Shown here: in pieces, positions 5,660 to 62,730 of the stretch | How the letters are laid out: the number at the start of each line of letters is the position of its first letter | Position numbering within the stretch: the first letter of the stretch is position 1 | Source of the DNA: an uncultured Clostridia bacterium | Lineage (GTDB): Bacteria; CAYTYR01; UBA6262 | Direction: 5' to 3' | NCBI GenBank assembly: GCA_964441745.1 | Contig: CAYTYR010000007.1 | Span: 1-64,000 of the forward strand | DNA: 64,000 bases | Made by a program: the position numbers and the translations under genes | The notes under the pieces: generated by a model | Databases searched by the model: none | Seen by the model: only the letters and a program-made list of their open reading frames with translations | Told to the model about the DNA's origin: nothing

Positions 5660-6582
5660 TAGAATTTCAAGCCGGCAATAATAATCGATTAGATGTGTTA
5701 TTGGCGGAAAAACTTTCCCAGTCCCGGACCTCGGCGCAGAAAATAATCCTTGAGCAGGGTGTTTGCCGGATAGCGCCCAGCCGTAAAATAATAAATAAAA
5801 CCGGCTATAAAACCAGCGTTGGAGAAATATTCCAGGTAGTCCTGCCGGAGATTAAAGAACTACCGCTGGCAGCTGAAAATATACCATTATCTATCTTATA
5901 TGAAGATAAAAGCCTGGTGGCGCTGGATAAACCTGCTGGCATGATGGTACATCCTGTCGGACGGATCAAGACCGGCACACTGGTCAACGCTCTTTTAACC
6001 CATTGTCAAGATCTTTCGCAGATTGGCGGTTGTATCCGTCCGGGAATAGTGCACCGGTTGGATAAGGATACCAGCGGGGTGATGATCGCAGCCAAGACCG
6101 ATGCTGCCCATCAGCATCTCTCAAAACAGTTTGCCCGCGGACAGGTAAAAAAAACCTATCTGGCTTTGGTCCATGGCCGGTTGACTGGCCGCAAAGGCTT
6201 GATCAATGCCAGGATTATGCGCGGCACTGCTGACCGCACTAAAATGAAAATATCTGCCACTGCCGGACGTAACGCGATCACTGAATATGAAGTAGTGAAA
6301 CAGTACCAGAATATGGCTCTGCTCCGGTTATTCCCTCGGACCGGCCGTACTCATCAAATACGGGTACATCTGGCTTTCATCGGCCATCCGATAGTTGGGG
6401 ACTGGAAATACGGGCAGGAACTGCCTGGACATAAAGCTGGACGGCAGCTATTGCATGCTGAAAGTATTTCTTTCATCCATCCAGAGACGAAAGAACATCT
6501 CCGCTTCCAGGCTGAGCTGCCAGCAGATTTTAAAGACGTCCTGATAAGTCAGGACGTCTTGATTACACCGATTTCAAAATAG
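5635..6582 (+). CDS. RluA-family pseudouridine synthase (RluD-like)
   Basis: GIVHRLDKDTSG, TGRTHQIRVH; N-terminal S4-like RLDVLLA. Confidence 0.93.
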   Translation: MEKTKKQIIEFQAGNNNRLDVLLAEKLSQSRTSAQKIILEQGVCRIAPSRKIINKTGYKTSVGEIFQVVLPEIKELPLAAENIPLSILYEDKSLVALDKPAGMMVHPVGRIKTGTLVNALLTHCQDLSQIGGCIRPGIVHRLDKDTSGVMIAAKTDAAHQHLSKQFARGQVKKTYLALVHGRLTGRKGLINARIMRGTADRTKMKISATAGRNAITEYEVVKQYQNMALLRLFPRTGRTHQIRVHLAFIGHPIVGDWKYGQELPGHKAGRQLLHAESISFIHPETKEHLRFQAELPADFKDVLISQDVLITPISK

Positions 6583-6609
6583 ATTACACCGATTATAATC
6601 TGTGTAATC
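6561..6609. repeat. Intergenic 9-nt-period element (family C)
   Basis: GATTACACCGATT at 6561 and 6582, inverted AATCTGTGTAATC at 6597. Confidence 0.75.
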
Positions 6610-6636
6610 AATAAGTTTCCGAAGGATAACTTATAC

Positions 6637-7023
6637 ATGAAATGGTTTAAGAGATTATTTAAGCAGGAACCTAAACAAGTTACCGTCAGCGGTTTTATCG
6701 GTGATATAGAAGCAAAGCTGGAAAAGTTCAGGCTGAACGATAAAACCGTCAATAAAATGGCTGACCGGGTTAAGGAACTGGATACTGATATTAAATCCTT
6801 TAAAGAGAGAATAGAGGAATTTTCCCGGGAAAATGAGCGGCTGGATGACCTGGCCCAGAAGATCATTGAAGTAGTGTCGCATATCTACAGCATGGATACA
6901 CGCCTGGCCCAGCTGGAAAAGAAAATTGAACAAATACAAATAGAAGTTGGCTTGGAAGAACATGGGACGGAAGGCGCATTAAAAAAGAAACCTTCGGAAA
7001 AGCAATCCACTTTTGAATTGTAA
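6637..7023 (+). CDS. Hypothetical coiled-coil protein
   Basis: 128-aa ORF with heptad-rich charged sequence; no family recognised. Confidence 0.7.
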   Translation: MKWFKRLFKQEPKQVTVSGFIGDIEAKLEKFRLNDKTVNKMADRVKELDTDIKSFKERIEEFSRENERLDDLAQKIIEVVSHIYSMDTRLAQLEKKIEQIQIEVGLEEHGTEGALKKKPSEKQSTFEL

Positions 7024-7029
7024 GTGAAC

Positions 7030-7096
7030 GATTCAAACAGATATATAAACAATGCAAACAGATATCTGTATGCATCTGAAACAATCAGTTTGCATC
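7030..7096. repeat. Intergenic palindromic element (family C variant)
   Basis: GATTCAAACAGAT and AATGCAAACAGAT followed by inverted ATCTGTATGCATC and ATCAGTTTGCATC. Confidence 0.7.
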
Positions 7097-7106
7097 CGTT
7101 AAGAAA

Positions 7107-7859
7107 ATGGACATTAAGATGTACCAAAAACGATTTTATCGCGACCAGTTTAAGAAAAATGAAATGGAATATTTTGAGCTGGCGATCAAAGAAAGTGATT
7201 TATTTATCGGTGTGAGCAAGGCCACGGCTGAAATTAAGGAATTAGCCAGGGAAAAACTGACGCAGTTCAGGCTGGACCTGGAAAATTATATTAAGGAAAA
7301 CCCGTTATTTGAGATAACTTTTAAACCATTCAAGGTAGGCGCCGAAGCCCCGGAAATTGTCCAGCGGATGGCGCAGGCTGCGCAGCAGGCTGGAGTCGGG
7401 CCGATGGCCAGTGTTGCCGGATGCCTGGCGGAAATGGTAGGCGAATCCCTGCTCCGGTTATCTACAGAAGTGATCGTGGAAAATGGGGGAGATATTTACC
7501 TGGCTTCGACCAAACCCAGGATCATCGGAATATATGCCGGCGATTCCAAGTTCAACGGAAAATTATCGCTGGAGATCGCTCCGGGAGAAACACCGGTAGG
7601 CATTTGTTCTTCCAGCGGCACGATCGGGCACTCGGTTAGCCTGGGGAAAGCTGATACCTGCCTGGTTAAGAGCCGGTCCGCGGCCCTGGCTGATGCTTAT
7701 GCCTCAACTATCGGGAATATGGTCAGAACCAAAGCTGATTTGCCGCCAGCCCTGGAAAAGGCAAAGTCATTGCCTAATCTTGACGGGGTGCTGATAATTA
7801 TAGAAAATGAAATGGGAGTATGGGGTAATATTAAATTAGTTCCTGTCGGAACTAATTGA
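7107..7859 (+). CDS. UPF0280 / ApbE-like family protein
   Basis: GVGPMASVAG, VENGGDIY, GICSSSGTIGHSVSLG motifs. Confidence 0.85.
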   Translation: MDIKMYQKRFYRDQFKKNEMEYFELAIKESDLFIGVSKATAEIKELAREKLTQFRLDLENYIKENPLFEITFKPFKVGAEAPEIVQRMAQAAQQAGVGPMASVAGCLAEMVGESLLRLSTEVIVENGGDIYLASTKPRIIGIYAGDSKFNGKLSLEIAPGETPVGICSSSGTIGHSVSLGKADTCLVKSRSAALADAYASTIGNMVRTKADLPPALEKAKSLPNLDGVLIIIENEMGVWGNIKLVPVGTN

Positions 7860-7892
7860 TTACACCGATTTTGAAATGAGATTACACAGATT
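7858..7892. repeat. Family C left half
   Basis: GATTACACCGATT (7858) and GATTACACAGATT (7880). Confidence 0.7.
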
Positions 7893-7909
7893 AGAAAAGT
7901 AGGGGTAGT

Positions 7910-8485: not shown

Positions 8486-8566
8486 TTACTCGAATCAAGA
8501 AGATTCTTTGGTTCGAGGCATTCGCTAACCTGCCTAAGGCAGGCAGGCATTCGCTTAATTCGTGAT
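8481..8566. repeat. 9-nt-period ATTCG array with nested REP-like hairpin
   Basis: GTTCGAGGC ATTCGCTAA [CCTGCCTAAGGCAGGCAGG 8529-8547] C ATTCGCTTA ATTCGTGAT. Confidence 0.6.
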
Positions 8567-8589
8567 TAAAATAAAAGGAGTGTGCAAAC

Positions 8590-8838: not shown

Positions 8839-8857
8839 TATAGTGATTTCAAATAGT

Positions 8858-8897
8858 AACCTGTGCCGCGCCCGCCGGCGATTTTTGGCGGGTAATC
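8858..8897. repeat. Family C right half interrupted by a REP-like hairpin
   Basis: AACCTGTG | CCGCGCCCGCCGGCGATTTTTGGCGGG (8866-8892) | TAATC. Confidence 0.55.
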
Positions 8898-8912
8898 AGT
8901 TAGCGGAACGAA

Positions 8913-10880: not shown

Positions 10881-10883
10881 AGC

Positions 10884-12827: not shown

Positions 12828-12849
12828 GAGTAATAACTAATAAGAAGCA

Positions 12850-12984
12850 GTAGTAAGGTGAAGGTTTTAGAAGTAGGTATAGAAGTAAGTCTAAAGCTTG
12901 TGGTTTAGAGCCTAATACCCTTAGACCTAAGACCAAACTTACTTCCAAAACTTACACCTATTAACTGTTCCTCGTATTGACTGT
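12850..12984. repeat. Intergenic hexamer-period quasi-palindrome (family A, copy 1)
   Basis: GAAGTAGGTATAGAAGTAAGTCTAAAG...AGACCTAAGACCAAACTTACTTCCAAAAC; similar to 32880, 51465, 56701 (inverted), 62685. Confidence 0.85.
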
Positions 12985-13004
12985 ATTTAGCAAAGGGAGC
13001 GGGT

Positions 13005-13292: not shown

Positions 13293-13304
13293 TGGGCAAA
13301 TATC

Positions 13305-13333
13305 TTGACAAAAACAGATATTTCTGCTAAATT
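13305..13333 (+). promoter_or_regulatory. Sigma70-type promoter of candidate sRNA
   Basis: TTGACA-17 nt-TAAATT with TG extended -10. Confidence 0.65.
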
Positions 13334-13337
13334 TATA

Positions 13338-13480
13338 TTAGTCATATGAAAGACGTATAGTCACGGAGACTGCCACGGCGTCAAAGATATGACTAAACTT
13401 GGGAAGGTAACAGCGTGATTTTCCCAGGTTTCCTAGCCAGGGAACCGGGTCTACTTTAACTAAGTAGACCCGATTCATTT
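13338..13480 (+). ncRNA. Candidate structured small RNA
   Basis: Perfect 10-bp stem 13338-13347/13387-13396, further stems, final 11-bp hairpin 13446-13472; no family recognised. Confidence 0.5.
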
Positions 13481-13519
13481 ATATGAGGGACGATTACACG
13501 GCATAGATATTATTTTTAA

Positions 13520-13548
13520 TTGACAATCAGGTTAAACTAGTATATAAT
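13520..13548 (+). promoter_or_regulatory. Consensus sigma70 promoter of the def-fmt operon
   Basis: TTGACA-17 nt-TATAAT. Confidence 0.8.
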
Positions 13549-13621
13549 TATTGAGGCAATCTTCCAATAAGGGGGATTGCCTTAAATTATTTTTTTTTAA
13601 GTATTGGTTTAAGGGTGTTTT

Positions 13622-18379: not shown

Positions 18380-18427
18380 GCTTATAGCTCATAGCTAATG
18401 GCTTAGTGCAGCCATACGCTATCTGCG
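18380..18427. repeat. Heptamer-period quasi-palindrome (family B)
   Basis: GCTTATA GCTCATA GCTAATG GCT ... AGCCATA CGCTATC TGC. Confidence 0.6.
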
Positions 18428-18461
18428 TTCTTTATTTTTAGCGCGTTATATTGAGGGGGGT

Positions 18462-23421: not shown

Positions 23422-23922
23422 ATGAAGAAATTAATTATTGTCTTTATTTGCTTGGTTATCACGCTATTGATGCTGGGCGCGGCAAAGGCCTATGCTTTTC
23501 ATTATACTACTGCTAATAGCACCCCGTATTCTGCCTTAACCGGCAAGAGTAATAACCTGGAATCTCCCAATAATGAAACTAACCTATATACATTTGACTT
23601 ACTGTCTTTCCTCAAGATCGAACAAAGTGATTTTGGCTCACTTCAAATGTATAATGGTAAAGTATATATCCGCGAAGGCCTAACCTACAAAATTTACCAA
23701 TTAGATCCTCATACCGGTCAGTATGCCAAGTCTGTTTCTGCTGATAATCTTGGCGCTGAAATGGCTGGCTTATTAAACCAGATGTTCTCCCCTCAGGAAA
23801 ACAAGCAAGTATTGGAAAAAATTAATATTAACTACACAGAATTAATACAGCTGGCACTTAATTTGCTGGCAGTAATAGTGTGGCTGCCAACAGCCTATAT
23901 ATCTGCATCTTGTAAAGATTGA
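23422..23922 (+). CDS. Hypothetical exported protein with C-terminal hydrophobic segment
   Basis: GGAGG RBS, MKK signal peptide ending AYA; upstream TTGACA at 23301. Confidence 0.65.
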   Translation: MKKLIIVFICLVITLLMLGAAKAYAFHYTTANSTPYSALTGKSNNLESPNNETNLYTFDLLSFLKIEQSDFGSLQMYNGKVYIREGLTYKIYQLDPHTGQYAKSVSADNLGAEMAGLLNQMFSPQENKQVLEKININYTELIQLALNLLAVIVWLPTAYISASCKD

Positions 23923-23967
23923 TTTTGAATGACTAAATAGTTTGCAATTTGAGAGAAGCATATTAAC

Positions 23968-24049
23968 TAAAAACCCCGAAGGGGCAGAGTTCCACGGACT
24001 TTACGTGGGTATCTACTTCTTATTTACACACTTTTTGTTGACTTGTCAA
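23968..24049 (-). ncRNA. Candidate ~50-nt RNA with own promoter and terminator
   Basis: Minus strand TTGACA (24049-24044)-17 nt-TAAATA; CCACG/CGTGG hairpin, then CCCC-TTC-GGGG-TTTTT. Confidence 0.4.
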
Positions 24050-24143
24050 AGAAACATATACATTTACATTTAAAATAACGGATGTTAAAATAATAGAGTA
24101 TGGTAAAAAAACTATTAAGCATAAATGGGCCGCTGAATAATTA

Positions 24144-24441
24144 TTGACAAAAATATGGTTATAAGCTATAAAGATACCCTTTAACCCGGAATTTGCAATA
24201 GGATTTGGAATTCGTCGAAAAATCGCTTTGTCTTTTCGTCTAAAAAATCGCGAACATACCGCTGCGAGTATGCTCGCACTTTTTTGAGACGAAAATACTG
24301 CGCGCTTTTCCGTCTCGGTTCGTCAAACCTATTGTAAAATCCGGGTTTAACCAAAAGGGTATTTTTATTTTATAAGGAGTCTTCATGTTAGCCAAAGTAT
24401 TAACTAGCGCGGTATTGGGAATAGATGCCTATATTATTAAG
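24144..24441 (+). repeat. Direct repeat of comM promoter, leader and first 19 codons (copy 1)
   Basis: Matches 25238-25535 (offset 1094); identical 24167-24404. Confidence 0.95.
24184..24346. mobile_element. 163-bp palindromic MITE-like element (copy 1)
   Basis: TIRs ACCCGGAATTTGCAATAGG / CCTATTGTAAAATCCGGGT, flanking TTA direct repeat, internally palindromic. Confidence 0.7.
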
Positions 24442-24474
24442 ATTGTTTCAGCGGAAAAAGCAAAAAAAGATTGA
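24385..24474 (+). pseudogene. comM: comM 5' fragment (29-aa ORF)
   Basis: MLAKVLTSAVLGIDAYIIK identical to ComM residues 1-19, then IVSAEKAKKD*. Confidence 0.9.
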
Positions 24475-24499
24475 CAATACAACTAAACAGTAGTATATT
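24471..24499 (+). promoter_or_regulatory. Promoter of TA operon with possible operator
   Basis: TTGACA-17 nt-TATATT; imperfect dyad ATACAACT/AGTAGTAT within it. Confidence 0.6.
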
Positions 24500-24514
24500 A
24501 ATAATGGAGAGAAA

Positions 24515-24871
24515 ATGCCAAAATGTGAATGTTGGTATTATACAATGAGTTCTGGTAAATCACCGGTAAAAGAATTTGTCCAATCTTTAGATGATCAGGC
24601 TAAAGCCAAATTTTACTTCAAAAAAGGATTGCTGGAAGAATTTGGCTGGAGATTGCCGGCACCGCATGCCAAGCACATCGGCCATGATATTTATGAGTTG
24701 AGATTTCAAGGAGTGGTGGGACAGTTAAGGGTATTGTATTTTTTCTTTACTGGTAATAAAATAATATTTACTAACGGCTTTATTAAAAAGACTGACAAAA
24801 CGCCAAAAAATGAGATAACCCTGGCTTTAGACAGGAAAAAGGATTTTCTCAATAGAATGACAGAAAGGTGA
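24515..24871 (+). CDS. RelE/HigB-family (Gp49-like) toxin
   Basis: GKSPVKEF, IYELR, RVLYFF, GFIKKTDKTP; toxin precedes antitoxin. Confidence 0.88.
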   Translation: MPKCECWYYTMSSGKSPVKEFVQSLDDQAKAKFYFKKGLLEEFGWRLPAPHAKHIGHDIYELRFQGVVGQLRVLYFFFTGNKIIFTNGFIKKTDKTPKNEITLALDRKKDFLNRMTER

Positions 24872-25221
24872 TGAAGATGAAAAAGAATAAAATACTAAAA
24901 GTAGACGAACACTTAAAAGAAGAAATGAAAAGACCTGTTTTTAAGGAACTCTGCGAATTGGAAGACCAAAAACTCCAGATTGCCAAAAAGATCGTGGGCT
25001 ATCGCATAACCCACAATTTGACGCAAAAGCAGTTAGCAAAAAAAATTAAGGTTAGTCAACAGTACATCTCCAAAATAGAGAAGGGAGAGTTCTTTAATAT
25101 CCCATCCTTGGAGAAAGTACTTGTCCCTTTAGGGTATAAGGTAAAATTGGAAGCTGTGCCATTAAGAGAAAAAACATCCCCCGGTCAACGCCATGTAATT
25201 TATCACTCACAAGTCGCATGA
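24868..25221 (+). CDS. XRE-HTH antitoxin (HigA-like)
   Basis: LTQKQLAKKIKVSQQYISKIEKG; overlaps toxin stop. Confidence 0.88.
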   Translation: MMKMKKNKILKVDEHLKEEMKRPVFKELCELEDQKLQIAKKIVGYRITHNLTQKQLAKKIKVSQQYISKIEKGEFFNIPSLEKVLVPLGYKVKLEAVPLREKTSPGQRHVIYHSQVA

Positions 25222-25237
25222 TCATTTTAAGTATTTG

Positions 25238-25535
25238 TTGACAAATATATACATATAAGATATAAAGATACCCTTTAACCCGGAATTTGCAATAGGATTT
25301 GGAATTCGTCGAAAAATCGCTTTGTCTTTTCGTCTAAAAAATCGCGAACATACCGCTGCGAGTATGCTCGCACTTTTTTGAGACGAAAATACTGCGCGCT
25401 TTTCCGTCTCGGTTCGTCAAACCTATTGTAAAATCCGGGTTTAACCAAAAGGGTATTTTTATTTTATAAGGAGTCTTCATGTTAGCCAAAGTATTAACCA
25501 GCGCAGTTTTAGGCATAGATGCTTATATTATCAAG
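25238..25535 (+). repeat. Direct repeat copy 2 (functional comM promoter and leader)
   Basis: TTGACA 25238-17 nt-TATAAA 25261; matches 24144-24441. Confidence 0.95.
25278..25440. mobile_element. 163-bp palindromic MITE-like element (copy 2)
   Basis: Identical by eye to 24184-24346. Confidence 0.7.
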
Positions 25536-27011
25536 GTGGAAGTGGATATCAGCAAGGGATTGCCAGCTTTCAATATTGTTGGCTTGCCGGATACCAGCGT
25601 GCGGGAAAGCCGGGATCGGGTCATGTCCGCAATCAAAAACAGCGAATTGAAATTCCCGACTAAACGCATGACCGTAAATATGGCGCCGGCGGATATCAAG
25701 AAAGAAGGGGCCAGTTTTGACCTGGCCATTGCTATTGGCATACTGGCAGCCAACGGAGAAGTAAGGAAAGATAAACTAAAAGACTATGTTTTCCTGGGAG
25801 AATTAGCCTTGGATGGCTCTATCCGGCAGGTACGCGGGGTTTTATCTATAGCCTTGGCCATGCGCCAAGAAAATATCCAGGGCCTGATCGTACCGGAACA
25901 TAACCAGAAAGAAGCTGGGGTAATAGAAAACCTGAAGGTGTATCCAGTGACTCATTTGCGGCAGGTAGTGGACTTCCTGAACGGGACAGGCAAACTGCCT
26001 GAGTATAAGTTTAACTTGCAGGAAGCCTTTGAACGGAATAATCGCTATGATATTGATTTCAGCGATGTCAAAGGACAAATGTTCGCTAAACGGGCTTTGG
26101 AAGTGGCTGCTGCCGGCGGTCATAATATTCTTTTGATCGGCAGTCCTGGATCAGGGAAGACGATGCTGGCTAAAAGGTTGCCGACAATTTTACCGGATAT
26201 GTCGTTAGACGAAAGCATTGAAACTACTAAGATCCATAGTGTTTCCGGCAATCTGGACGGATTATCATTGGTCGCGACCAGGCCGTTCCGTTCTCCGCAT
26301 CATACGATCAGTGATGTCGCGCTGATCGGTGGCGGGGCATATCCCAAACCAGGGGAAGTGAGCTTATCGCATAATGGGGTGCTTTTCCTGGATGAATTGC
26401 CCGAATTCCACCGCAATGTCCTGGAAGTGCTCAGACAGCCATTGGAAGATGGAGTGGTGACTATTTCGCGGGCAGTGACCAGCCTGACCTATCCGGCCAA
26501 ATTCATGATGGTAGCGGCCATGAATCCCTGTCCTTGCGGCTATTATGGTGATAATAAGCAAGAGTGCCTTTGCTCTGTGTTTAAGATCCAGAAATATCAT
26601 TCTAAAGTTTCAGGCCCTTTACTGGACCGTATAGACATGCATGTGGAAGTGCCCCGGCTTAAGTTTACTGAAATGAGCGCAGACCAACCGGCAGAAAGCA
26701 GCGCGGTGGTCCGGGCCAGGGTAAATCAGGCCAGGGTCATTCAGCAAGACCGTTATCAGAAAGAAAAGCAGATCCATTGTAATGCCCATATGCAACCCAA
26801 ACATCTTAAAAAATATTGCCAGCTTACTCCAGAAAGCCAGGAGTTGCTGAAAAATGCCATCAATAAATTAAATCTCAGCGCCCGCGCTTATGACCGCATC
26901 TTGAAGGTGGCCAGGACCATCAGTGACCTGGACAACCAACCCCAGATACAATCGCAGCATATCGCCGAAGCCCTGCAATATCGCAGCCTGGACAAGAACC
27001 TGTTTGCTTAA
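25479..27011 (+). CDS. comM: ComM/YifB Mg-chelatase-like AAA+ ATPase
   Basis: IVGLPD, GSPGSGKT, RPFRSPHH, FLDELPEF, AMNPCPCG, ARTISDL. Confidence 0.97.
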   Translation: MLAKVLTSAVLGIDAYIIKVEVDISKGLPAFNIVGLPDTSVRESRDRVMSAIKNSELKFPTKRMTVNMAPADIKKEGASFDLAIAIGILAANGEVRKDKLKDYVFLGELALDGSIRQVRGVLSIALAMRQENIQGLIVPEHNQKEAGVIENLKVYPVTHLRQVVDFLNGTGKLPEYKFNLQEAFERNNRYDIDFSDVKGQMFAKRALEVAAAGGHNILLIGSPGSGKTMLAKRLPTILPDMSLDESIETTKIHSVSGNLDGLSLVATRPFRSPHHTISDVALIGGGAYPKPGEVSLSHNGVLFLDELPEFHRNVLEVLRQPLEDGVVTISRAVTSLTYPAKFMMVAAMNPCPCGYYGDNKQECLCSVFKIQKYHSKVSGPLLDRIDMHVEVPRLKFTEMSADQPAESSAVVRARVNQARVIQQDRYQKEKQIHCNAHMQPKHLKKYCQLTPESQELLKNAINKLNLSARAYDRILKVARTISDLDNQPQIQSQHIAEALQYRSLDKNLFA

Positions 27012-27873: not shown

Positions 27874-29910
27874 ATGCTTCCCATCAACAATAAATGTATT
27901 TTCAGGAACAAGGTTCTGGCAAGTATTTTTATTACCTTTTGTTGCTTTTTCTTCTTATCTATATGTAAAGTCTGGGCAACAGAATATACAATCAAACCGA
28001 TTACCGATAATAATTACTATAATGATGCTCCTAGTATAAGTAATGGCCAAATAGCCTGGCATGGCTACGATGGCAATGACGATGAGATATTTTATTATGA
28101 TGGTAGCCAGATTACGCAGCTTACCAATAATATTTACTTAGATTGTTATCCCATTATAAGTAACGGCCAAATTGTCTGGTTTGGAAATAAAGGCAATGAT
28201 CTGAACAATGAGATATTTTATTATGATGGTAGTCAGATTACACAGTTTACTAATAATAATTACCATGATTCTTGTCCCAATATCAGTAATGGCCAAATCG
28301 TCTGGCAAGGCTACGATGGCAATGACGATGAGATATTTTTTTATGATGGTAGCCAGATTAAGCAACTTACCAATAATGATTATTACGATTCTAATCCCAG
28401 TATCAGTAATGGCCAAATTGCCTGGTATGGATATGATGGCAATGACTATGAGATATTTTTTTATGATGGTAGTCAGATCACACAACTTACCAATAATGAT
28501 TACAATGATATCGGCACTCCCAGCATAAGTAATGGGCAAATCGCCTGGATAGGCTACGATGGCAATGATTATGAGATATTTTTTTATGATGGCAGTCAGA
28601 TTACACAACTTACCAATAATGATTACGATGATTATAATCCCATTATCAGTAGCGGCCAAATAGTCTGGGAAGGTGGTACTGAAAGCAATTACAATGACTA
28701 TGAAATATTTTTCTATGATGGCAGCCAGATTAAACAGATTACCAATAATAATTACTATGATGGTAGTCCCAGTATCAGTAATGGCCAAATTGCCTGGATG
28801 GGCTACGATGGTAATAACTATCAGATATTTCTCGCCACATCAGATCCTATACTCAAGAGTGTAGAGATTTATTATCGGCATGATTTAGGCAATAATGGTC
28901 TTCCAATTGCTGGATATCCAACCTCGGCTACACCAGTAACTGTTAAAGCAATAGTATGGGCTGATGATGGGAAAGATACGAAACCGTATACGCAGCAAGA
29001 TGAGGATGAAATAGTAAATGACGGAAAGTGGTATAATACAGGGAGCGAGGGATCGCAGGCCGGCAAATATTCGCCTGATTTAACTGTTCCTGTTTTGAGC
29101 GTTTCGGATGTTCCCAAAATATATAAGTGGCCCGATTCTTGGCAGCAGCCAGATTTTGAATGGGCAAGCTTATTTAATTACGCGAGTAGTCCCACTTCTG
29201 CTGTCCCTGGGGAAGGAATGAATCGCAATTACGTCTACAATAAATACGTTAATTTATTATGGGGATCATGGGGAGCAGATAATATAACATTACCTGAAGG
29301 TAATTGGAAATTTAATGTAAAAGCTTACCTAAACAAAGGTACCCCCGAAGAACAATTTGTTGTATCATCAGATACAGAGTGTGCGACAAGAGTAAGTGTG
29401 TTAGATAGTAATGCGCCAGTTGATTCAAATTTAAAAAATTATTTAAAATGGATAACGGCGTATTACGATGTTCCTTATGAATGGGGTGGATATTGGTTTG
29501 GTGGAAAAGAAGGTAAAGATGTAGGTGGCCATGATATCAATGAGGGATATGGCGTTGATTGTTCAGGCCTAGTTAGTATAGGAGCGAAATGGGCAGGATA
29601 TAATTGGTATCCATGGCGCGCTAATGCAACAATGTTTGCATATGGTCCCGATGCTAAGCCTAATACTTCCGATGACAACTACTATTCTATAAGAATAAGC
29701 CCCAGCGATCTTAAGCCGGGAGACATACTTAATAAAGCTGGTAAACACGTAGTTACTATTTATGGTATAAGAAGTAGAGATAATATGGGTAATCCAAAGA
29801 TAGTCACTATTATTTCAGCGGAGCCCAATCCTTATAACAAGGTTCTAATGCAAGATAAAGATATAGCAGTTTATTCTACATTCCAAGCGAGAAGGCTTGT
29901 AACGCATTAA
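27874..29910 (+). CDS. Secreted protein: seven ~40-aa beta-propeller-like repeats plus C-terminal NlpC/P60 domain
   Basis: Signal peptide; 7x IS(N/S)GQI(A/V)W; VPYEWGG, GVDCSGLV, LKPGDIL, KHV. Confidence 0.8.
   Translation: MLPINNKCIFRNKVLASIFITFCCFFFLSICKVWATEYTIKPITDNNYYNDAPSISNGQIAWHGYDGNDDEIFYYDGSQITQLTNNIYLDCYPIISNGQIVWFGNKGNDLNNEIFYYDGSQITQFTNNNYHDSCPNISNGQIVWQGYDGNDDEIFFYDGSQIKQLTNNDYYDSNPSISNGQIAWYGYDGNDYEIFFYDGSQITQLTNNDYNDIGTPSISNGQIAWIGYDGNDYEIFFYDGSQITQLTNNDYDDYNPIISSGQIVWEGGTESNYNDYEIFFYDGSQIKQITNNNYYDGSPSISNGQIAWMGYDGNNYQIFLATSDPILKSVEIYYRHDLGNNGLPIAGYPTSATPVTVKAIVWADDGKDTKPYTQQDEDEIVNDGKWYNTGSEGSQAGKYSPDLTVPVLSVSDVPKIYKWPDSWQQPDFEWASLFNYASSPTSAVPGEGMNRNYVYNKYVNLLWGSWGADNITLPEGNWKFNVKAYLNKGTPEEQFVVSSDTECATRVSVLDSNAPVDSNLKNYLKWITAYYDVPYEWGGYWFGGKEGKDVGGHDINEGYGVDCSGLVSIGAKWAGYNWYPWRANATMFAYGPDAKPNTSDDNYYSIRISPSDLKPGDILNKAGKHVVTIYGIRSRDNMGNPKIVTIISAEPNPYNKVLMQDKDIAVYSTFQARRLVTH
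27985..28830 (+). repeat. Coding tandem repeat, ~120-129 nt unit, 7 copies
   Basis: Recurring AGTAATGGCCAAAT..CTGG and TATGATGGTAGCCAGATT. Confidence 0.9.
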
Positions 29911-31935: not shown

Positions 31936-32364
31936 TCAGCCAATACTAAAATATCTATCTACCCTTTGGAAAAATATTCCATTGGGTAGCCTTTTATTTT
32001 GCTCCCAATGCGCCAAAGTAGTAGGATCAATATGAACAAGTTGGCCAAGTTGTCGTAAAGTCAAGCTTCGGAACTCCCTGGCTCTTTTTATCCTTTGCCC
32101 CAGTGTTTTAACCTTGGGATCGTAGGGCCAATAACCTAAGAAATCCATTATAACTTTGAGGTATTGACAGTTTGGGTAGTTGCGTTGCCTTTCCCAATTA
32201 ATAATAGTAGAGGCATTTGTACCTAAGATTTCCGCTAACTCCTTTTGTTGGAGCTTTAGGTCCATACGCTTCTTTTTTATGTGTTCTCCAATGGTTTTTG
32301 GGTATTGGGGGTAGTTTAAGGGCAAAGGTCGTTTAACCTTAAGTGTAAAAGCACAGTATGGCAA
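31936..32364 (-). CDS. Tandem XRE helix-turn-helix protein
   Basis: TIGEHIKKKRMDLKLQQKELAEILG and TLGQRIKRAREFRSLTLRQLG; TTG start next to the island junction. Confidence 0.8.
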   Translation of the reverse strand: MPYCAFTLKVKRPLPLNYPQYPKTIGEHIKKKRMDLKLQQKELAEILGTNASTIINWERQRNYPNCQYLKVIMDFLGYWPYDPKVKTLGQRIKRAREFRSLTLRQLGQLVHIDPTTLAHWEQNKRLPNGIFFQRVDRYFSIG

Positions 32365-32372
32365 CGCAGGTA

Positions 32373-32855
32373 TGCCCCTGCGGCTATCATGGGGACAGCA
32401 AGCAGGAATGCTTGTGCTCGGTGTTTAAGATCCAGAAATATCATTCTAAAGTTTCAGGCCCTTTACTGGACCGTATAGACATGCATGTGGAAGTGCCCCG
32501 GCTTAAGTTTACTGAAATGAGCGCAGACCAACCGGCAGAAAGCAGCGCGGTGGTCCGGGCCAGGGTAAATCAGGCCAGGGTCATTCAGCAAGACCGTTAT
32601 CAGAAAGAAAAGCAGATCCATTGTAATGCCCATATGCAACCCAAACATCTTAAAAAATATTGCCAGCTTACTCCAGAAAGCCAGGAGTTGCTGAAAAATG
32701 CCATCAATAAATTAAATCTCAGCGCCCGCGCTTATGACCGCATCTTGAAGGTGGCCAGGACCATCAGTGACCTGGACAACCAACCCCAGATACAATCGCA
32801 GCATATCGCCGAAGCCCTGCAATATCGCAGCCTGGACAAGAACCTGTTTGCATAA
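32373..32855 (+). pseudogene. comM: Duplicated comM 3' fragment (from CPCG to stop)
   Basis: Matches 26529-27011 (offset 5844); identical 32421-32851. Confidence 0.95.
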
Positions 32856-32879: not shown

Positions 32880-32995
32880 GGGTAAAGGTTGTAGAAGTAG
32901 GTCGTAAGTTTTTGGTTTAAGCCTATCAACCATAGACCTCAGACCAAACTTACTTCCAAAACCTGCCCCTAATAACTGTTCCTTGTTTTGACAGA
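32880..32995. repeat. Family A copy 2
   Basis: GTAGAAGTAGG...AGACCTCAGACCAAACTTACTTCCAAAAC. Confidence 0.85.
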
Positions 32996-33011
32996 CTGGC
33001 TTACTTTTATA

Positions 33012-38624: not shown

Positions 38625-38701
38625 TAGCGTAAAGCGTATAGCGTATAGCGGATAGGAAGTGCAATTGATTTTCTATACGCTACCCGCTAAACGCTATCCG
38701 C
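38625..38701. repeat. Family B heptamer palindrome
   Basis: TAGCGTA AAGCGTA TAGCGTA TAGCGGA TAG ... CTA TACGCTA CCCGCTA AACGCTA TCCGC. Confidence 0.85.
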
Positions 38702-39767: not shown

Positions 39768-39810
39768 GTCCCCGCGGCATTGATCTCGTTTAATGAGATC
39801 AGCAGGGGAA
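39768..39810 (+). promoter_or_regulatory. Structured rpsB leader (possible S2 autoregulatory site)
   Basis: CCCC..TGATCTCG-TTTAA-TGAGATCA..GGGG hairpin upstream of rpsB. Confidence 0.4.
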
Positions 39811-39850
39811 AATTTAGAATTTAAAATTTCAAAAGAGGGGGGGTGAAAAA

Positions 39851-41272: not shown

Positions 41273-41285
41273 AATCGGTGTAATC
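41273..41285. repeat. Family C right unit
   Basis: AATCGGTGTAATC is the exact reverse complement of GATTACACCGATT. Confidence 0.55.
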
Positions 41286-41304
41286 GTACTTAAAAGGAGT
41301 CACC

Positions 41305-42625: not shown

Positions 42626-42696
42626 GCTATTGGCATATGGCGTATGGCATAGAGCAAAACAAAGGAAGTATTTGCCATAAGCTATAAGCCATAAGC
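42626..42696. repeat. Family B heptamer palindrome
   Basis: GCTATTG GCATATG GCGTATG GCATAGA GC ... GCCATAA GCTATAA GCCATAA GC. Confidence 0.8.
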
Positions 42697-45612: not shown

Positions 45613-46656
45613 ATGTTAGTCACTCTGATCATTATTATTGCCTTTAGCTTGTTAGTCATTTTTCATGAGTTTGGCCATTATATTATCGCTAAATTGCTAA
45701 AGGTAAAAGTAGAAAAATTCGCGATAGGATTCGGTCCTAAATGGTTTGGCTTCCAGGGTAAGGAAACCTATTACAGTGTCAACCTTTTCCCTTTAGGCGG
45801 CTATGTGCGCATGTTGGGAGATGAAGTAGGAGACCCCCAGGCCCTGGATCCGCGGAGCTACCTGGCGCAAAAATGGTATAAGCGTGCGTTTATTGTAGCT
45901 TTCGGGCCGGTGATGAATTTTGTCCTGGCGGTTTTATTGTTCACTATTATTTTTATGGTTGGGATTAATGTCCCTGATACTTCGACTACCCGTATCGGCT
46001 ATGTTTATGAAAATACTCCTGCTTTTAAAGCTGGACTTAAAGAAGGCGATATTGTTAAAAAAATAAGCAATCAGGAGATAACGAGCTGGGATGAGTTAAC
46101 CAAGATCATCCAGCCAAATTATGGCAAAGAATTGCCGTTGGAAGTGCTGCGTGATAAAAAGTCAATGATCGTTAAACTGGTTCCTGAATATGACCAGGAA
46201 AGAAAAGTGGGGATCTTAGGGATCCGTTCGAGCCAAAAACTGGAACGGGATAATCCCTTGAGGGCTTTAATTAAGGGCTTTGAGGAAACCTATTCCTGGA
46301 CCGTCATCACTTTGAAAGCTATCTGGTGGATGATCTCTGGCAAGATCGCTCCCGAAGTATCAGGCCCTGTAGGCATAGCCCAGATGATCAGCGTTGGAGT
46401 TAAGGCTGGCTTTGCCAGCCTGGTTGCATTCATCGCCGTCTTAAGCATTAACCTGGGGGTATTCAACTTGTTTCCGATTCCGATACTTGACGGCGGGCAT
46501 ATACTTTTCCTGGTGATCGAGGCGATCAAAGGAAAACCGGTCAGCCCTGCAAAAATAAAAATTGCCCAAACTATTGGCTTAGCGGTTTTACTGCTGATTT
46601 TTTTGTTTGCCACATATAAGGATATTGTCAGGCTGCTGATACCGGGGCCGAAATAG
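45613..46656 (+). CDS. rseP: RIP metalloprotease RseP
   Basis: HEFGH, PDZ domain, NLFPIPILDGG. Confidence 0.95.
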   Translation: MLVTLIIIIAFSLLVIFHEFGHYIIAKLLKVKVEKFAIGFGPKWFGFQGKETYYSVNLFPLGGYVRMLGDEVGDPQALDPRSYLAQKWYKRAFIVAFGPVMNFVLAVLLFTIIFMVGINVPDTSTTRIGYVYENTPAFKAGLKEGDIVKKISNQEITSWDELTKIIQPNYGKELPLEVLRDKKSMIVKLVPEYDQERKVGILGIRSSQKLERDNPLRALIKGFEETYSWTVITLKAIWWMISGKIAPEVSGPVGIAQMISVGVKAGFASLVAFIAVLSINLGVFNLFPIPILDGGHILFLVIEAIKGKPVSPAKIKIAQTIGLAVLLLIFLFATYKDIVRLLIPGPK

Positions 46657-46684
46657 CGGATAGCGTAAAGCGTTTAGCGTATAG
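46654..46684. repeat. Family B left half
   Basis: TAGCGGA TAGCGTA AAGCGTT TAGCGTA TAG. Confidence 0.75.
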
Positions 46685-51464: not shown

Positions 51465-51600
51465 AGTAATAGGGTGAAAGTTGTAGAAGTAAGTATGGAA
51501 GTAGGGCTAGAGTCTTTAGTCTAGAGCCTAACACCTTTTAACCTAAGACTAAACTTACTTCCAAAACATACACCTAATAACTGTTATTCGTATTGACTGT
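51465..51600. repeat. Family A copy 3
   Basis: GTAGAAGTAAGTATGGAAGTAGG...AAACTTACTTCCAAAACATACACCTAATAACTGTT. Confidence 0.85.
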
Positions 51601-56700: not shown

Positions 56701-56818
56701 AAGTCTTTGGGTGTTAGGTTAGGAAATAAGTTTGGTCTTAGGTCTATGGATGTTGGGCTCTAAACTATAAACTTTAGACTTACTTCTATACCTACTTCCA
56801 CAACTAACAACTTACTTC
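56701..56818 (-). repeat. Family A copy 4 (inverted)
   Basis: Reverse complement GAAGTAGGTATAGAAGTAAGTCTAAAG...AGACCTAAGACCAAACTTA matches copy 1. Confidence 0.85.
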
Positions 56819-56834
56819 GTTTTTTGGAGGGGCG

Positions 56835-58356: not shown

Positions 58357-58359
58357 AAG

Positions 58360-58501
58360 AAGTTGATAGTTCCCTCCCAGCAAACGTTGGCGGGCAGGCA
58401 TTGTTGATAGTTGATAGAAAAAGCTAAAAGACCGTTCGTGGTTTGTGGTTCGTCATTGGTCGTTTTAATCTGTGAAATCTCTCTTAATAATCTGTGTAAT
58501 C
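58360..58501. repeat. Composite spacer: heptamer arrays, REP-like hairpin and family C right half
   Basis: AGTTGAT units around CCCTCCCAGCAAACGTTGGCGGGCAGG (58372-58398); GTTCGTG GTTTGTG GTTCGTC; AATCTGTGAAATC and AATCTGTGTAATC. Confidence 0.7.
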
Positions 58502-58521
58502 GTTTCTAAAAGGAGAATAAA

Positions 58522-59577: not shown

Positions 59578-59582
59578 AAGCG

Positions 59583-59609
59583 CCTGCCCGCCAATGTCTG
59601 TTGGGCGGG
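59583..59609. repeat. REP-like hairpin with CCTG foot
   Basis: CCTGCCCGCCAATGTCTGTTGGGCGGG; near reverse complement of 58372-58398. Confidence 0.7.
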
Positions 59610-59630
59610 GTAGAGTAGTAGAGGGGTAAG

Positions 59631-60875
59631 ATGAAGAAAGAAAAAATAGATTATAAAAAAGCCGCGATAGAACTGCATAAAAAACTGCGTGGCAAGATTG
59701 CAGTGGTCAGTAAGAGCCTGGTGACCAAAGACACCCTGGGATTATTGTATACGCCAGGGGTAGCGGAACCTTGCCGCCAGATAGCCTTAAAAAAAGAACT
59801 GGTCTACAACTATACCTCCCGGCATAATATGATCGCTATAGTAAGTGATGGCAGTGCGGTTCTGGGCTTGGGTAATATTGGACCGGAAGCTGGTTTACCG
59901 GTCATGGAAGGAAAAGCTATCCTGTTCAAGACTTTTGGCGGGGTGGATGCTTTCCCGATCTGTCTGGCGACCCAGGATACGGAGGAGATTATTAAAACCG
60001 TAAAATACCTGGCGCCAAGCTTCGGCGGAATAAACCTGGAAGATATTTCCGCGCCGCGCTGTTTTGAAGTGGAAAAAAGGCTGATCGCGGAAACTGATAT
60101 CCCTATTTTTCATGATGACCAGCATGGCACGGCGGTAGTGGTATTAGCTGGTTTGATCAATGTTTTTAGAATGGATAAACGTAAGATCAGCAATGTAAAG
60201 ATTGTGGTCAACGGCGCCGGGGCAGCGGGTATAGCCATTACGAAGTTCTTATTAAAGTATGGGTTTAAGCATATTATCTTGTGTGACCGTCATGGGGCTA
60301 TTTACAAAGAACGCAGGGAGGGCATGAACCCGGTTAAGGATGAAATGGCCAAGTTTACCAATCTGGATAACGAAAGAGGTGAATTGAAAGACATTATTCA
60401 AGGAGCTGATGTGTTTTTAGGTGTTTCTGTAGCTGACGCGCTCACTCCGGAGATGGTCAGGTCCATGGCTAAGGATCCGGTCATTTTTGCCATGGCTAAT
60501 CCTGATCCAGAAATACTTCCGCCTGCGGCTAAAAGCGCCGGGGCAAAATATATCGCTACCGGTCGCAGTGATTTTGCCAATCAGATCAATAATGTTTTGG
60601 CTTTCCCGGGTATTTTCCGGGGTACACTGTCTGTGCGGGCCAGGGTAATAAATGATGAAATGAAAATAGCTGCCAGCCTGGCTATCAGCAGCCTGATTTC
60701 TGATAAAGAATTGTCACCTGAATATTTTATCCCCAAGGCTTATGACCTGCGGATCGCTCCTAAAGTAGCCAGGTTTGTGGCTGAAGAAGCGATCAGGACT
60801 GAAGTAGCCAGGATCAATAAAACCGGCGCCCAGGTGGAAAAAGAAGCGAGGAAGCTAATAGAAGGAAATAAATGA
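59631..60875 (+). CDS. Malic enzyme
   Basis: YTPGVAEPC, GLPVMEGK, FHDDQHGT, NGAGAAG, NNVLAFPGIFRG. Confidence 0.95.
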   Translation: MKKEKIDYKKAAIELHKKLRGKIAVVSKSLVTKDTLGLLYTPGVAEPCRQIALKKELVYNYTSRHNMIAIVSDGSAVLGLGNIGPEAGLPVMEGKAILFKTFGGVDAFPICLATQDTEEIIKTVKYLAPSFGGINLEDISAPRCFEVEKRLIAETDIPIFHDDQHGTAVVVLAGLINVFRMDKRKISNVKIVVNGAGAAGIAITKFLLKYGFKHIILCDRHGAIYKERREGMNPVKDEMAKFTNLDNERGELKDIIQGADVFLGVSVADALTPEMVRSMAKDPVIFAMANPDPEILPPAAKSAGAKYIATGRSDFANQINNVLAFPGIFRGTLSVRARVINDEMKIAASLAISSLISDKELSPEYFIPKAYDLRIAPKVARFVAEEAIRTEVARINKTGAQVEKEARKLIEGNK

Positions 60876-61705
60876 AAAAAATATTAGCCAAAACTATTAC
60901 CGAAAAAATAAAATCAGCATATATAAACTCTTGTGTAGTTGCGGATTCTGAGTTAATAGCGCTGCTTAAAAAAGCGGTCAGAAATGAAACCAATAAAAAC
61001 GCCAGGAATGTTCTTGGATTGATCCTTGAAAATTGCCGTATCGCTGAAACTAAAAGAAGGCCGATCTGTCAGGATACGGGAATGGCCGTAGTCTTTGTGG
61101 AAATAGGGCAGAATGTGCTTATTACCGGCGGTGATCTGGAACAGGCGATACATCAAGGAATAGGGCTCGCTTGCCAGGAGGGGTACTTGAGAGCATCAGT
61201 GGTCGATCCCTTGAACCGTAAAAATACCAACAATAATACGCCCGCGATAATTTATGCTAAAATTGTTCCCGGCAATGCCTTAAGAATAACTGTTGTCCCA
61301 AAAGGTTTCGGCAGCGAGAATATGGGACAAGTGAAAATGCTCCGGCCCGGCGCAGGGATTGACGGTATTATAGAGTTTGTGACTGAAGCAGTGAAAAAAG
61401 CAGGAGCTAATCCCTGCCCCCCGATACTCATCGGGGTAGGCATTGGCGGCACCCTGGATAAGGCGGCGCTGCTGGCTAAAGAAGCCTTATTCGGGATTGG
61501 TAAACAAAGCCCTAAATCACTTAATGACCTGGAGAAAAGATTGCTCCGGGCAGTTAACAAATTAAACATCGGCCCAGCTGGATTGGGTGGGAAGAATACA
61601 GCGTTAAAAGTAAGCGTAAAAACTTATCCTACTCATATTGCCGGACTGCCGGTAGCAATTAATATAGGTTGCTGGTGCCACCGGGCCAAGACAGTAGTCA
61701 TATGA
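60872..61705 (+). CDS. Fe-S fumarate hydratase alpha subunit
   Basis: PICQDTG, PKGFGSEN, NPCPP, PTHIAG. Confidence 0.92.
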   Translation: MKKILAKTITEKIKSAYINSCVVADSELIALLKKAVRNETNKNARNVLGLILENCRIAETKRRPICQDTGMAVVFVEIGQNVLITGGDLEQAIHQGIGLACQEGYLRASVVDPLNRKNTNNNTPAIIYAKIVPGNALRITVVPKGFGSENMGQVKMLRPGAGIDGIIEFVTEAVKKAGANPCPPILIGVGIGGTLDKAALLAKEALFGIGKQSPKSLNDLEKRLLRAVNKLNIGPAGLGGKNTALKVSVKTYPTHIAGLPVAINIGCWCHRAKTVVI

Positions 61706-62241
61706 AAAAAATCAGCGTACAGTGTCCAGAAAAGAATATTATTAAAATAACTCTACCGATCAAGGAATCTGATCTGGCTAAATTAAAAGCCGGGGATGAA
61801 ATTCTCTTGACTGGGACTGTTTATACAGCCAGGGACGCGGCGCACCGGAGAATGGTTAAGAAACTGCCGCTGAATATAAAAGGGGCGGCTATTTATCATA
61901 CCGGTCCGGCGCCGGCTAAACCCGGCGAGGTTATTGGTTCCTGCGGACCGACTACGTCTGCCCGGATGGACCAATATACGCCAACACTATTGCCAAAAGG
62001 CCTGAAAGCGGTTATTGGCAAGGGCCGTTTGAGTGATCAAACCAGGGAGTCTTTTAAAAAGCACCAGGCAGTATATTTTCTTGCTCCAGGCGGGTGCGGG
62101 GCGCTATTGGCCGATAAGGTAAAAAGCATGACCTTGGTAGCGTATCAAGACTTAGGTTGTGAAGCCATCTATCAGTTGGAAATAGAAGATTTCCCCGTGA
62201 TCGTTGGGATTGATCCTAAAGGACGGAGCGTATATCATTAA
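61702..62241 (+). CDS. Fe-S fumarate hydratase beta subunit
   Basis: TARDAAH, GPTTSARM, LGCEAI; ATG overlapping the alpha stop. Confidence 0.92.
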   Translation: MKKISVQCPEKNIIKITLPIKESDLAKLKAGDEILLTGTVYTARDAAHRRMVKKLPLNIKGAAIYHTGPAPAKPGEVIGSCGPTTSARMDQYTPTLLPKGLKAVIGKGRLSDQTRESFKKHQAVYFLAPGGCGALLADKVKSMTLVAYQDLGCEAIYQLEIEDFPVIVGIDPKGRSVYH

Positions 62242-62684
62242 TGACCGAGAGAACCCTGATCATAGTTAAACCTGATTCCCTGAGTAAAAGGGTCGGAGGA
62301 AAAGTACTGAATGCTTTAGAATCGTGCGGCTTACAGCTGGTGGCCTGCAAAATGCTGCAATTATCCAGGCCCAGCGCCGAAGATTTTTACGGGGAACATA
62401 AGGGTAAAGAATTTTATGAACCACTGGTTGCATTTATGTCCAGTAATCCCTGCATCGTCACTGTTTGGGAAGGCGAAGGGGCGATCAAGAAAGCCAGGGA
62501 AGTCATCGGCGCGACAGATCCGGCTCAGGCTAATGACGCCACGATCAGGAAAATGTATGCTACTGATAACCGCCATAACGCGGTGCATGGCTCAGACAGC
62601 CTTAAATCAGCGGCACGGGAAATAGCCTTTTTCTTTAATCACGAAGAGATTTTCCCCTGGACTGAGAAAGTATACAAAAAATAG
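62241..62684 (+). CDS. ndk: Nucleoside diphosphate kinase
   Basis: ERTLIIVKPD, IGATDP, NAVHGSDS. Confidence 0.96.
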   Translation: MTERTLIIVKPDSLSKRVGGKVLNALESCGLQLVACKMLQLSRPSAEDFYGEHKGKEFYEPLVAFMSSNPCIVTVWEGEGAIKKAREVIGATDPAQANDATIRKMYATDNRHNAVHGSDSLKSAAREIAFFFNHEEIFPWTEKVYKK

Positions 62685-62730
62685 GTCTTCAAACCAAACT
62701 TACTTCCAAACCAAATACCCAAAGACTTAA
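62685..62730. repeat. Family A right half (copy 5)
   Basis: ACCAAACTTACTTCCAAACCAAATACCCAAAGACTT; matches the end of inverted copy 4. Confidence 0.75.

Follow-up and report, generated by a model that had tools for sequence, protein, structure and literature searches.

Tandem-word hairpins in the operon spacers of a Clostridia bacterium as probable gene-less derivatives of cassettes encoding a four-helix-bundle protein

The window analyzed here is a stretch of 64,000 nucleotides (C7:1–64000) from the 2.07-Mb genome of an uncultured Clostridia bacterium (39 contigs, 44% G+C; hereafter G000). It contains about 70 genes, all on the + strand and with housekeeping functions, including ileS, lspA, lgt, rluD, gmk, coaBC, priA, def, fmt, rpsP, trmD, rplS, dprA, topA, xerC, rpsB, tsf, pyrH, frr, a small ferredoxin gene (fdx), uppS, cdsA, dxr, rseP, ispG, the genes for the subunits of an aconitase-type dehydratase, icd, a fumarase gene, ndk and ackA; a strong bias in gene orientation is seen on each large contig of G000. 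Many spacers between these genes hold elements built of short tandem words, arranged as an array followed by its reverse complement or as only one of these halves. We describe these elements and their relation to cassettes, a term that we use for a four-helix-bundle gene of family PF05635 located between two inverted arrays of short words (the arms). The original prediction for this DNA had proposed that at least 15 spacers carry such arrays and that they could be scars or empty sites of a mobility system for single genes.

Elements were recognized by eye in about 17 window spacers. They are given below with fold z-scores and with arrays called by Tandem Repeats Finder (TRF); class C is our label for a hairpin family of about 125 nt.

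6554–6616, + strand: hairpin of GATTACACCGATT words (two direct, then inverted AATCTGTGTAATC) over the rluD stop codon (6580–6582), one of the GATTACAC[AC]GATT-word sites; arms 85% and 88% complementary, z −3.48.
7030–7076, + strand: local hairpin of CAAACAGATAT words, with 0 other loci in the genome.
7861–7895, + strand: half element of two direct GATTACAC[CA]GATT words right behind the stop codon of a gene for a 250-amino acid protein; 23 other loci.
8489–8570, + strand: element of CGAAT/ATTCG words with a nested CCTGCC..GGCAGG hairpin.
12845–12985, + strand: gene-less class C hairpin 3′ of priA; 51 genome copies, z −2.68.
18380–18432, + strand: weak hairpin of ATAGCTC/ATGGCTT words 3′ of rpsP; z −1.32, with 18 of 200 shuffles folding equally well.
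32880–33010, + strand: gene-less class C hairpin; 52 other loci.
38625–38701, + strand: TAGCGTA-word hairpin 3′ of xerC (TAGCGTA ×4.4, then CTATACG...); z −4.26, 0 of 200 shuffles as good; inverted TRF halves of period 7 at 38625–38655 and 38673–38701.
39768–39833, + strand: nested CCCCGCGG...CAGGGG hairpin, then a half array of AAATTTAG-type words (TRF array 39809–39833), directly ahead of the rpsB ribosome-binding site.
41278–41292, + strand: single AATCGGTGTAATC word, one of the GATTACAC[AC]GATT-word sites.
42631–42696, + strand: TGGCATA/GCCATAA hairpin between frr and fdx; z −4.40, 0 of 200 shuffles as good; inverted TRF halves of period 7 at 42631–42651 and 42674–42696.
46653–46684, + strand: half array ATAGCGT ×4.6, the first word of which supplies the rseP stop codon.
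51470–51585, + strand: gene-less class C hairpin; 57 other loci.
56705–56825, − strand: gene-less class C hairpin, reversed, between the genes for the large and small dehydratase subunits; dispersed copies.
58364–58505, + strand: composite spacer with GTTGATA words split by a GC-rich hairpin, a half array GTTCGTG ×2.9 and two AATCTGTG[AT]AATC words; TRF array of period 7 at 58403–58453, words of the GATTACAC[AC]GATT type at 58470–58505.
59581–59625, + strand: GC-rich hairpin, then GTAGAGT-type words.
62688–62725, + strand: class C right arm only, 3′ of ndk.

The elements are present where the original prediction had placed them, as inverted or as single halves. The number of spacers involved varies with the criterion. 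Using TRF with a score of at least 28 on the 33 spacers from position 6500 onward, arrays were found in 8, against 1.5 ± 1.2 (maximum 4) in 100 dinucleotide shuffles, and arrays of period 7 or 14 in 5 against 0.41. Fourteen of the 33 spacers have at least three other copies in the genome, two of which reflect a duplication in the comM region and not this type of element. An Rfam scan of the window returned no family at gathering score.

The excess extends to the whole genome. The 1157 intergenic stretches of G000 (147 kb; in all counts, intergenic means outside genes by crude longest-open reading frame (ORF) calling) contained 437 arrays compared to 61.05 ± 7.3 in 20 shuffles, and 295 arrays of period 7 or 14 compared to 16.65 ± 3.8. 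A stricter detector reported 73 arrays of period 7 and at most 12 for each other period from 4 to 12. Of the predicted periods of 6, 7 and 9, 7 is dominant and the other two are rare; period 8 takes second place overall. The unit described as having period 9 is better read as a 13-nt word. The 459 period-7 arrays comprise 198 distinct units, with ATAGCGT (42), AGAATTT (29) and GAGTTTT (12) the most frequent, and the copy number per array has its mode at 4 with few long arrays. The inverted design proposed for the window also holds across the genome, since 115 of the 278 arrays examined could be matched to an inverted partner (score of at least 10 within 110 nt); direct partners were found for 10, and a shuffled query gave 3. 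The first array starts close to the upstream stop codon (−3 to +6 nt) in 66 of 203 spacers, where uniform placement would give 28.9, and nine overlap the stop codon, in agreement with the proposal that many arrays begin at or overlap a stop.

Seven genes of G000 match PF05635 over the Pfam cut-off (best E-value 4.3e-41), and six of these are located between inverted word arms:

C13:21143, arms TAGCGTA / TACGCTA.
C12:24511, arms GCGTATGGCA / TGCCATACGC.
C2:75896 and C10:9438, arms AAATTCT / AGAATTT.
C2:120222, arms GAGTTTT / AAAACTC.
C2:115658, between two class C halves.

The sole ORF of a cassette encodes a four-helix-bundle protein of about 120 amino acids. When flank complementarity was scored for 1889 ORFs of G000 (median 7, 99th percentile 12), the six armed PF05635 genes reached 24, 20, 17, 13, 12 and 11; the remaining high scorers were two IS200-like Y1 transposase genes with repeats of their own, an insertion sequence, and genes that happen to stand between two separate hairpins. 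As judged by eye, the arms of the six genes together with the array beside the seventh match the main gene-less families of the genome.

Two cassettes at unrelated sites in a congener, G005, share 85% identity along a 500-nt stretch that runs from inside the 5′ arm to where the 3′ arm stops, and their flanks are unrelated; arms and gene therefore form a single unit of duplication. One class C copy without a gene corresponds to the two ends of the cassette at C2:115540–116110, namely its first 52 nt (86.5% identity) joined to its last 58 nt (81%), and a 204-nt gene-less GGCACAAAG hairpin 3′ of ndk in G005 shares both ends with four-helix-bundle cassettes of that genome. Judging from these common ends, gene-less hairpins are internal-deletion derivatives of a gene-bearing element. 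The derivatives are themselves dispersed: class C has 51 copies, 44 along the local genes and 7 against them, and the hairpin 3′ of xerC recurs with its loop at C12:40097–40173 (96% identity over 77 nt) and in G003–G005 (up to 94% identity over 83 nt).

We compared G000 with five congeners (G001–G005), one genome of a sister genus that is 95% complete (G006) and two genomes of another family in the class (G007 and G008). Each of the six genomes of the genus has 3–7 copies of PF05635, and 17 of the 21 congener copies are enclosed by inverted word arms, each with its own word (GGCACAG, GGTGTAAAG, GCTGAAT, CGTTCGT, AGTCGCT, TAGCTCG, ATCAGGA, ATATCAAA, CGGTATA and class C). The sole intact GxxExxY gene found in the class, in G002, has CGAAT upstream and ATTCG downstream, the word family of the window element at 8489–8570, in line with the suggestion in the original prediction that GxxExxY genes have such flanks. 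When cassettes of the relatives were mapped to G000, the corresponding sites proved to be empty, to hold the same cassette or one with other arms and another protein subtype, or to carry a half array or a gene-less hairpin from a different family. The hairpin at C18:5028–5159 of G000, for example, corresponds to a cassette in G003 and G005, and at two sites (L027 and L037) arms and gene are present in one species and no element at all is present in G000. In the relatives' cassettes L024, L025, L028, L029, L033 and L046 the 3′ arm lies inside the first ~25 codons of the downstream gene, a signal-peptide-like region, so the repeat words are translated.

For 18 window spacers, 68 of 90 spacer-by-genome combinations were resolved in the five congeners, and nearly each spacer had a different element per species. 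The hairpin over the rluD stop codon is also present in G005 and absent from G002 and G003. Downstream of priA, class C occurs in G002 as well, an ATCAGG-word hairpin in G003 and G004, and another element in G001, while G003, G004 and G005 carry a different element each downstream of rpsP. The xerC hairpin is shared with G005, replaced by other hairpins in G001 and G003, and missing in G002. Ahead of rpsB, G003 and G004 have the half array alone; at the single word of 41278–41292, G002 and G003 have a complete hairpin of the GATTACAC type, inside which a TCCGCC..GGCGGA hairpin is nested. The spacer between frr and fdx has the same element in G001, a TAGCGTA half only in G003–G005, another element in G002, and none in G006 (TAA-GGAGG alone). 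The class C hairpin at 51470–51585 is shared with G002 and G004, and the dehydratase spacer holds a GGTGTAAAG-word hairpin in G002, G003 and G005 and none in G001. All five congeners differ from G000 at the composite spacer, and 3′ of ndk an ATCAGG hairpin stands in G003 and the 204-nt hairpin described above in G005. DNA contigs compared with the window showed only strain differences and assembly breaks at the xerC hairpin; on a contig of a related strain the genes are colinear and the frr–fdx and rseP–ispG spacers are replaced by other sequence, 78 other letters in the latter case. The proposal that the arrays are scars or empty sites of a cassette system is supported by the alternation of occupied and empty states at orthologous sites outside the window, with the caveat that the window itself has only gene-less and one-armed forms.

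Window genes next to elements were considered as cargo and rejected. The gene for a 128-amino acid protein and that for the 250-amino acid protein, both between rluD and gmk, do not encode four-helix bundles; one had weak coiled-coil matches only and the other matched PRK04334 ‘hypothetical protein’ models. The fdx gene is present in G006 without an array, behind a bare TAA-GGAGG spacer.

The association between arms and gene is found well beyond this genus. With an alignment of 4 four-helix-bundle sequences, one genome per species was searched, and the best 80 of 598 relatives were picked by similarity, such that related loci in this wide set are not independent. They come from Planctomycetota, Acidobacteriota, Flavobacterium, many Patescibacteria, Elusimicrobiota, Omnitrophota, Clostridia, Gammaproteobacteria and others. 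Flank complementarity of at least 10 was observed for 56 of 78 loci compared to 2 of 77 controls, in which the flanks were shifted 450 nt outward, and complementarity of at least 14 for 38 loci and no control. Tandem arrays were detected in 121 of 156 flanks (period 7 in 63, 8 in 31, 14 in 11 and 6 in 9), the arms have a median length of 4.3 units, and at 52 of 77 loci the cassette gene is co-directional with both neighbors. That four-helix-bundle genes are flanked by such arrays, also put forward in the original prediction, is supported in G000, its congeners and the wide set. Arm words were common to 39 of 42 protein pairs with at least 70% identity, 45 of 116 pairs with 60–70% identity and 50 of 1002 pairs with 50–60% identity; the arm words diverge together with the enclosed protein.

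We consider it probable, with a probability of about 0.7, that the window spacers belong to a large population of hairpin-ended selfish elements and that their hairpins are gene-less derivatives of cassettes. A cassette occupies the interval from the stop codon of one gene to the ribosome-binding site of the gene that follows, and in most cases has the orientation of these two genes. The window hairpins would be internal-deletion derivatives resembling miniature inverted-repeat transposable elements (MITEs), and the halves would be one-armed remains or fast-evolving remnants. The arms would be read by the machinery of mobility or maintenance, either as a hairpin or as repeated words, and the reader may be the four-helix-bundle protein itself. 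In a polycistronic transcript the paired arms could form a long stem that RNase III might cut, as in the intervening sequences of 23S ribosomal RNA (rRNA); the gene for this enzyme (rnc) is present in G000. The mRNA-processing signals that the original prediction named as an alternative may be a consequence of insertion. Words that contain a stop codon would allow insertion at the extreme 3′ end of a gene to be tolerated. Of the 48 arrays adjacent to a stop codon, 36 have a word with a stop codon in the sense strand and 15 a word with one in the antisense strand; the corresponding numbers for the other 162 arrays are 98 and 88. A word that contains a stop and recurs with a 7-nt period offers a stop to every reading frame, so that an element inserted into the last codons of a gene simply resets its stop, as at rseP (46654–46656), and this tolerance would account for arrays so often being at or over a stop codon.

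Several observations weigh against this interpretation. No four-helix-bundle protein is encoded in the window, the elements of which are all gene-less, and such a gene is likewise absent from the 68 orthologous spacers that were resolved in the five congeners. The seventh PF05635 gene of G000 (C2:112954) has an array on one side only (AACTCGC ×9), and two longer congener copies (L036 and L044) have no arms; the remaining two unarmed congener entries are pieces of a single gene that is interrupted by contig ends. In G000, no copy of the abundant GATTACAC family bears a gene. The hairpin and half design is also seen in G006, of the sister genus, at a density of 23 heptamer arrays per 100 kb (in a sample of 91 kb), and no PF05635 gene was found in this genome; neither the Pfam model nor a profile built from the proteins of the genus detected one in G006, G007 or G008, and G007 had 0 arrays per 100 kb (100 kb sampled). 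Gene-less families can, in our reading, outlive their gene-bearing partners. No cassette encodes a transposase, a reverse transcriptase (PF00078) was not found in G000, and no target-site duplication was evident when the L027 and L037 junctions were compared by eye with G000; we therefore infer mobility from copy patterns only. PDDEXK_3 (PF13366) was also not found in G000. Lastly, stems maintained by selection on the transcript should be richer in G-U pairs on the sense strand, but 84 hairpins showed no such excess (286 of 3115 pairs in the sense and 277 of 3026 in the antisense strand), which favors a DNA-level or strand-symmetric role of the arms, or young and nearly perfect repeats. The sense strand folded better in 37 of these hairpins and the antisense strand in 46. 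For the 51 copies of class C, RNAalifold gave no more than 7 pairs (96.1% canonical, one compensatory cell), which we do not take as evidence on covariation.

Alternatively, the hairpins could be RNA elements of the host, formed within the spacers of long operons through slippage and template switching and used as stabilizers of mRNA, RNase processing sites or translation insulators, with the four-helix-bundle genes as latecomers homing into their loops. The arrays and hairpins of G006, where no such gene was found, and the cargo-less GATTACAC family also fit hairpins as primary and genes as guests, and an RNA function would suit the several hairpins that fold far better than shuffles, the orientation bias of class C relative to genes, and the enrichment of arrays at stop codons, where words tend to hold stops. 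Orthologous spacers are not conserved, however, with unrelated elements or none within one genus, and near-identical copies are dispersed with their loops included. The two G005 cassettes that are alike in arms and gene and unlike in flanks, the presence of arms and gene at L027 and L037 where another species has no element, and the absence of a sense-strand G-U excess also speak against this explanation, and we regard an origin in place as unlikely.

Two further explanations were weighed. A host DNA- or RNA-binding protein, such as a nucleoid protein or global regulator, might use the tandem words as binding arrays, which is how opposite-strand paired tandem repeats at variable distance were read in Geobacter metallireducens (PMC2700814). 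A word number held to about four would agree with this idea, but 198 distinct heptamer units in one genome, different words at the same site in different species, and arms that follow the enclosed gene and not the host render it quite improbable. The arrays might also be plain microsatellite slippage by a polymerase prone to 7-nt slips, with inverted halves and neighboring genes a coincidence, and the heptamer excess of many bacteria has indeed been ascribed to polymerase slippage (Mrazek 2007, cited in PMC4692102). This last explanation is hardly credible here: it is largely refuted by the inverted partners, by the complementary gene flanks of the wide set and by dispersed copies that share loops, and slippage would not account for copy numbers that peak at 4 with few long arrays.

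If the spacer elements are derivatives of cassettes, as we prefer, they share features with several known systems. Short intervening sequences without an ORF occur in the rRNA of enterobacteria. The 23S rRNA of Coxiella burnetii has an intervening sequence with an ORF that is excised by RNase III (PMC4990558), and rRNA insertions with an S23p/PF05635 ORF are described in the candidate phyla radiation (PMC11270868). Like these, the cassettes have a PF05635 (S23p / 23S_rRNA_IVP) gene within the loop of a long stem whose two strands are the inverted ends, they are selfish elements of sporadic distribution, and they have gene-less forms. Unlike them, all copies examined here are between protein-coding genes and not in helices of 23S or 16S rRNA, the stems consist of tandem 7-nt words, and the elements are multicopy with MITE-like gene-less derivatives; cutting by RNase III is postulated here by analogy.

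MITEs, repetitive extragenic palindromic (REP) elements and bacterial interspersed mosaic elements are short palindromic repeats dispersed between genes, and REP elements accompany genes of REP-associated tyrosine transposases (RAYT, of the Y1 type). The elements of G000 resemble them in being multicopy and dispersed, with terminal inverted repeats (the class C copies and the near-copies of the xerC hairpin) and an orientation bias, and they resemble MITEs in that gene-less copies look like internal deletions of a gene-bearing copy (class C and the ndk hairpin of G005). In contrast, the gene-bearing copy has no known transposase here and target-site duplications were not observed. A REP/RAYT-like layout is shown by two IS200-like Y1 transposase genes of G000 (C8:5396–6343 and C8:48198–48851; PF01797, E-values 4.5e-13 and 8.4e-9); their flanks are GACCCCATTGTTTA-type and AACCGTCTTTCCACC-type repeats and not heptamer words. 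Integron cassettes are stacked at an attI site next to an intI integrase gene; the cassettes described here are dispersed singly in operon spacers. The Avd protein of diversity-generating retroelements is a small four-helix-bundle protein that we take to belong to the same superfamily as PF05635; unlike in Avd systems, no reverse transcriptase or pair of template and variable repeats was found in G000.

The short tandemly repeated repetitive sequences of cyanobacteria are intergenic heptamer repeats. To our knowledge, such repeats still lack an explanation, although reports of them from cyanobacteria, Xanthomonas, Beggiatoaceae, Bacteroidetes and Geobacter go back decades, and we know of no role for PF05635 proteins outside diversity-generating retroelements. 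Reported examples are the TAACTGA repeats of Beggiatoaceae, Cyanobacteria and Bacteroidetes (PMC4679880), GGGAATC of Xanthomonas and GGGGA[CT]T of Nostoc (PMC4692102), and pairs of hepta- and octanucleotide repeats on opposite strands at variable distance in G. metallireducens, e.g. at proB-proA, which were read as sites of the IHF/HU type (PMC2700814). Like these, the arrays of G000 are intergenic 7-mers with few units, sometimes in inverted pairs, located in operon spacers and variable among close relatives. The Geobacter pairs have the same opposite-strand design and differ in the interpretation given to them. No link to a gene family is made in the accessible parts of PMC4679880 and PMC4692102, whereas here a genome has many word families and several of them match the arms of a PF05635 gene. 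A literature search with little coverage of subscription journals found no paper that ties heptamer arrays to PF05635.

Cassettes with arms of 7-base words may explain a long-puzzling class of bacterial repeats. We put forward a bolder version very tentatively and think it doubtful: the PF05635 protein would be the word reader of mobile elements that lack a transposase, its pentameric ring binding about four to five of the 7-nt words in the arms of its own cassette, in the form of single-stranded DNA or RNA and with one word for each subunit, and thereby promoting copying or retention, such that cassettes would be the source of most unexplained bacterial heptamer repeats and rRNA intervening sequences a special case. 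The solved relatives of the PF05635 protein, 2GSC and 2RLD, have five chains per entry. If heptamer repeats and PF05635 genes do belong together, the origin of the former and the role of the latter would become testable in cultured carriers, e.g. at the Flavobacterium, Adhaeretor and Thiohalocapsa loci, and the cassettes would illustrate a way for a selfish element to live inside essential operons without breaking them. G000 is a dense case: 295 arrays occur in its 2 Mb, families are represented by copies with and without a gene, and five congeners and a gene-less sister genus can be compared with it.

Some other features of these spacers and of the window were recorded. GC-rich hairpins (CCCCGCGG...CAGGGG, TCCGCCAGAGGCGGA and CCTGCC..GGCAGG) are nested in or between word arrays and in some cases split a GATTACAC word, at 39768–39800 of the window, at C5:34349–34600 of G000 and at many G005 loci; they look like a second layer of small insertions within arms. 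The 329-nt spacer at 13293–13621 has promoter-like TTGACA boxes and a stable hairpin (13442–13476), is conserved in G002 and has no Rfam match; at this spacer G003 carries a 3.6-kb insertion with runs of N and surface-protein-like ORFs, among which no match to a four-helix-bundle profile was found.

In the region 23917–25478, a stretch of ~200 nt upstream of a comM-like gene (25479–27011) is duplicated at 24180–24430, and the two copies have an inverted repeat in common (24216–24312 and 25310–25406). A separate C-terminal comM fragment of 165 amino acids is encoded at 32358–32855, and between the two comM parts are a Gp49/helix-turn-helix pair of the toxin-antitoxin type, genes for surface proteins and an XRE-type repressor. 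The arrangement suggests that an island was inserted into comM and that part of the sequence was duplicated. A tandem repeat of 120/246 nt (6.8 and 3.4 copies) at 27999–28830 lies within the gene for a 678-amino acid protein that matches the beta-propeller repeat model TIGR04275. Upstream of ileS, at 747–1608, overlapping genes for a nucleotidyltransferase (Polbeta/MNT) and a HepT-like RNase form a module of the toxin-antitoxin type.

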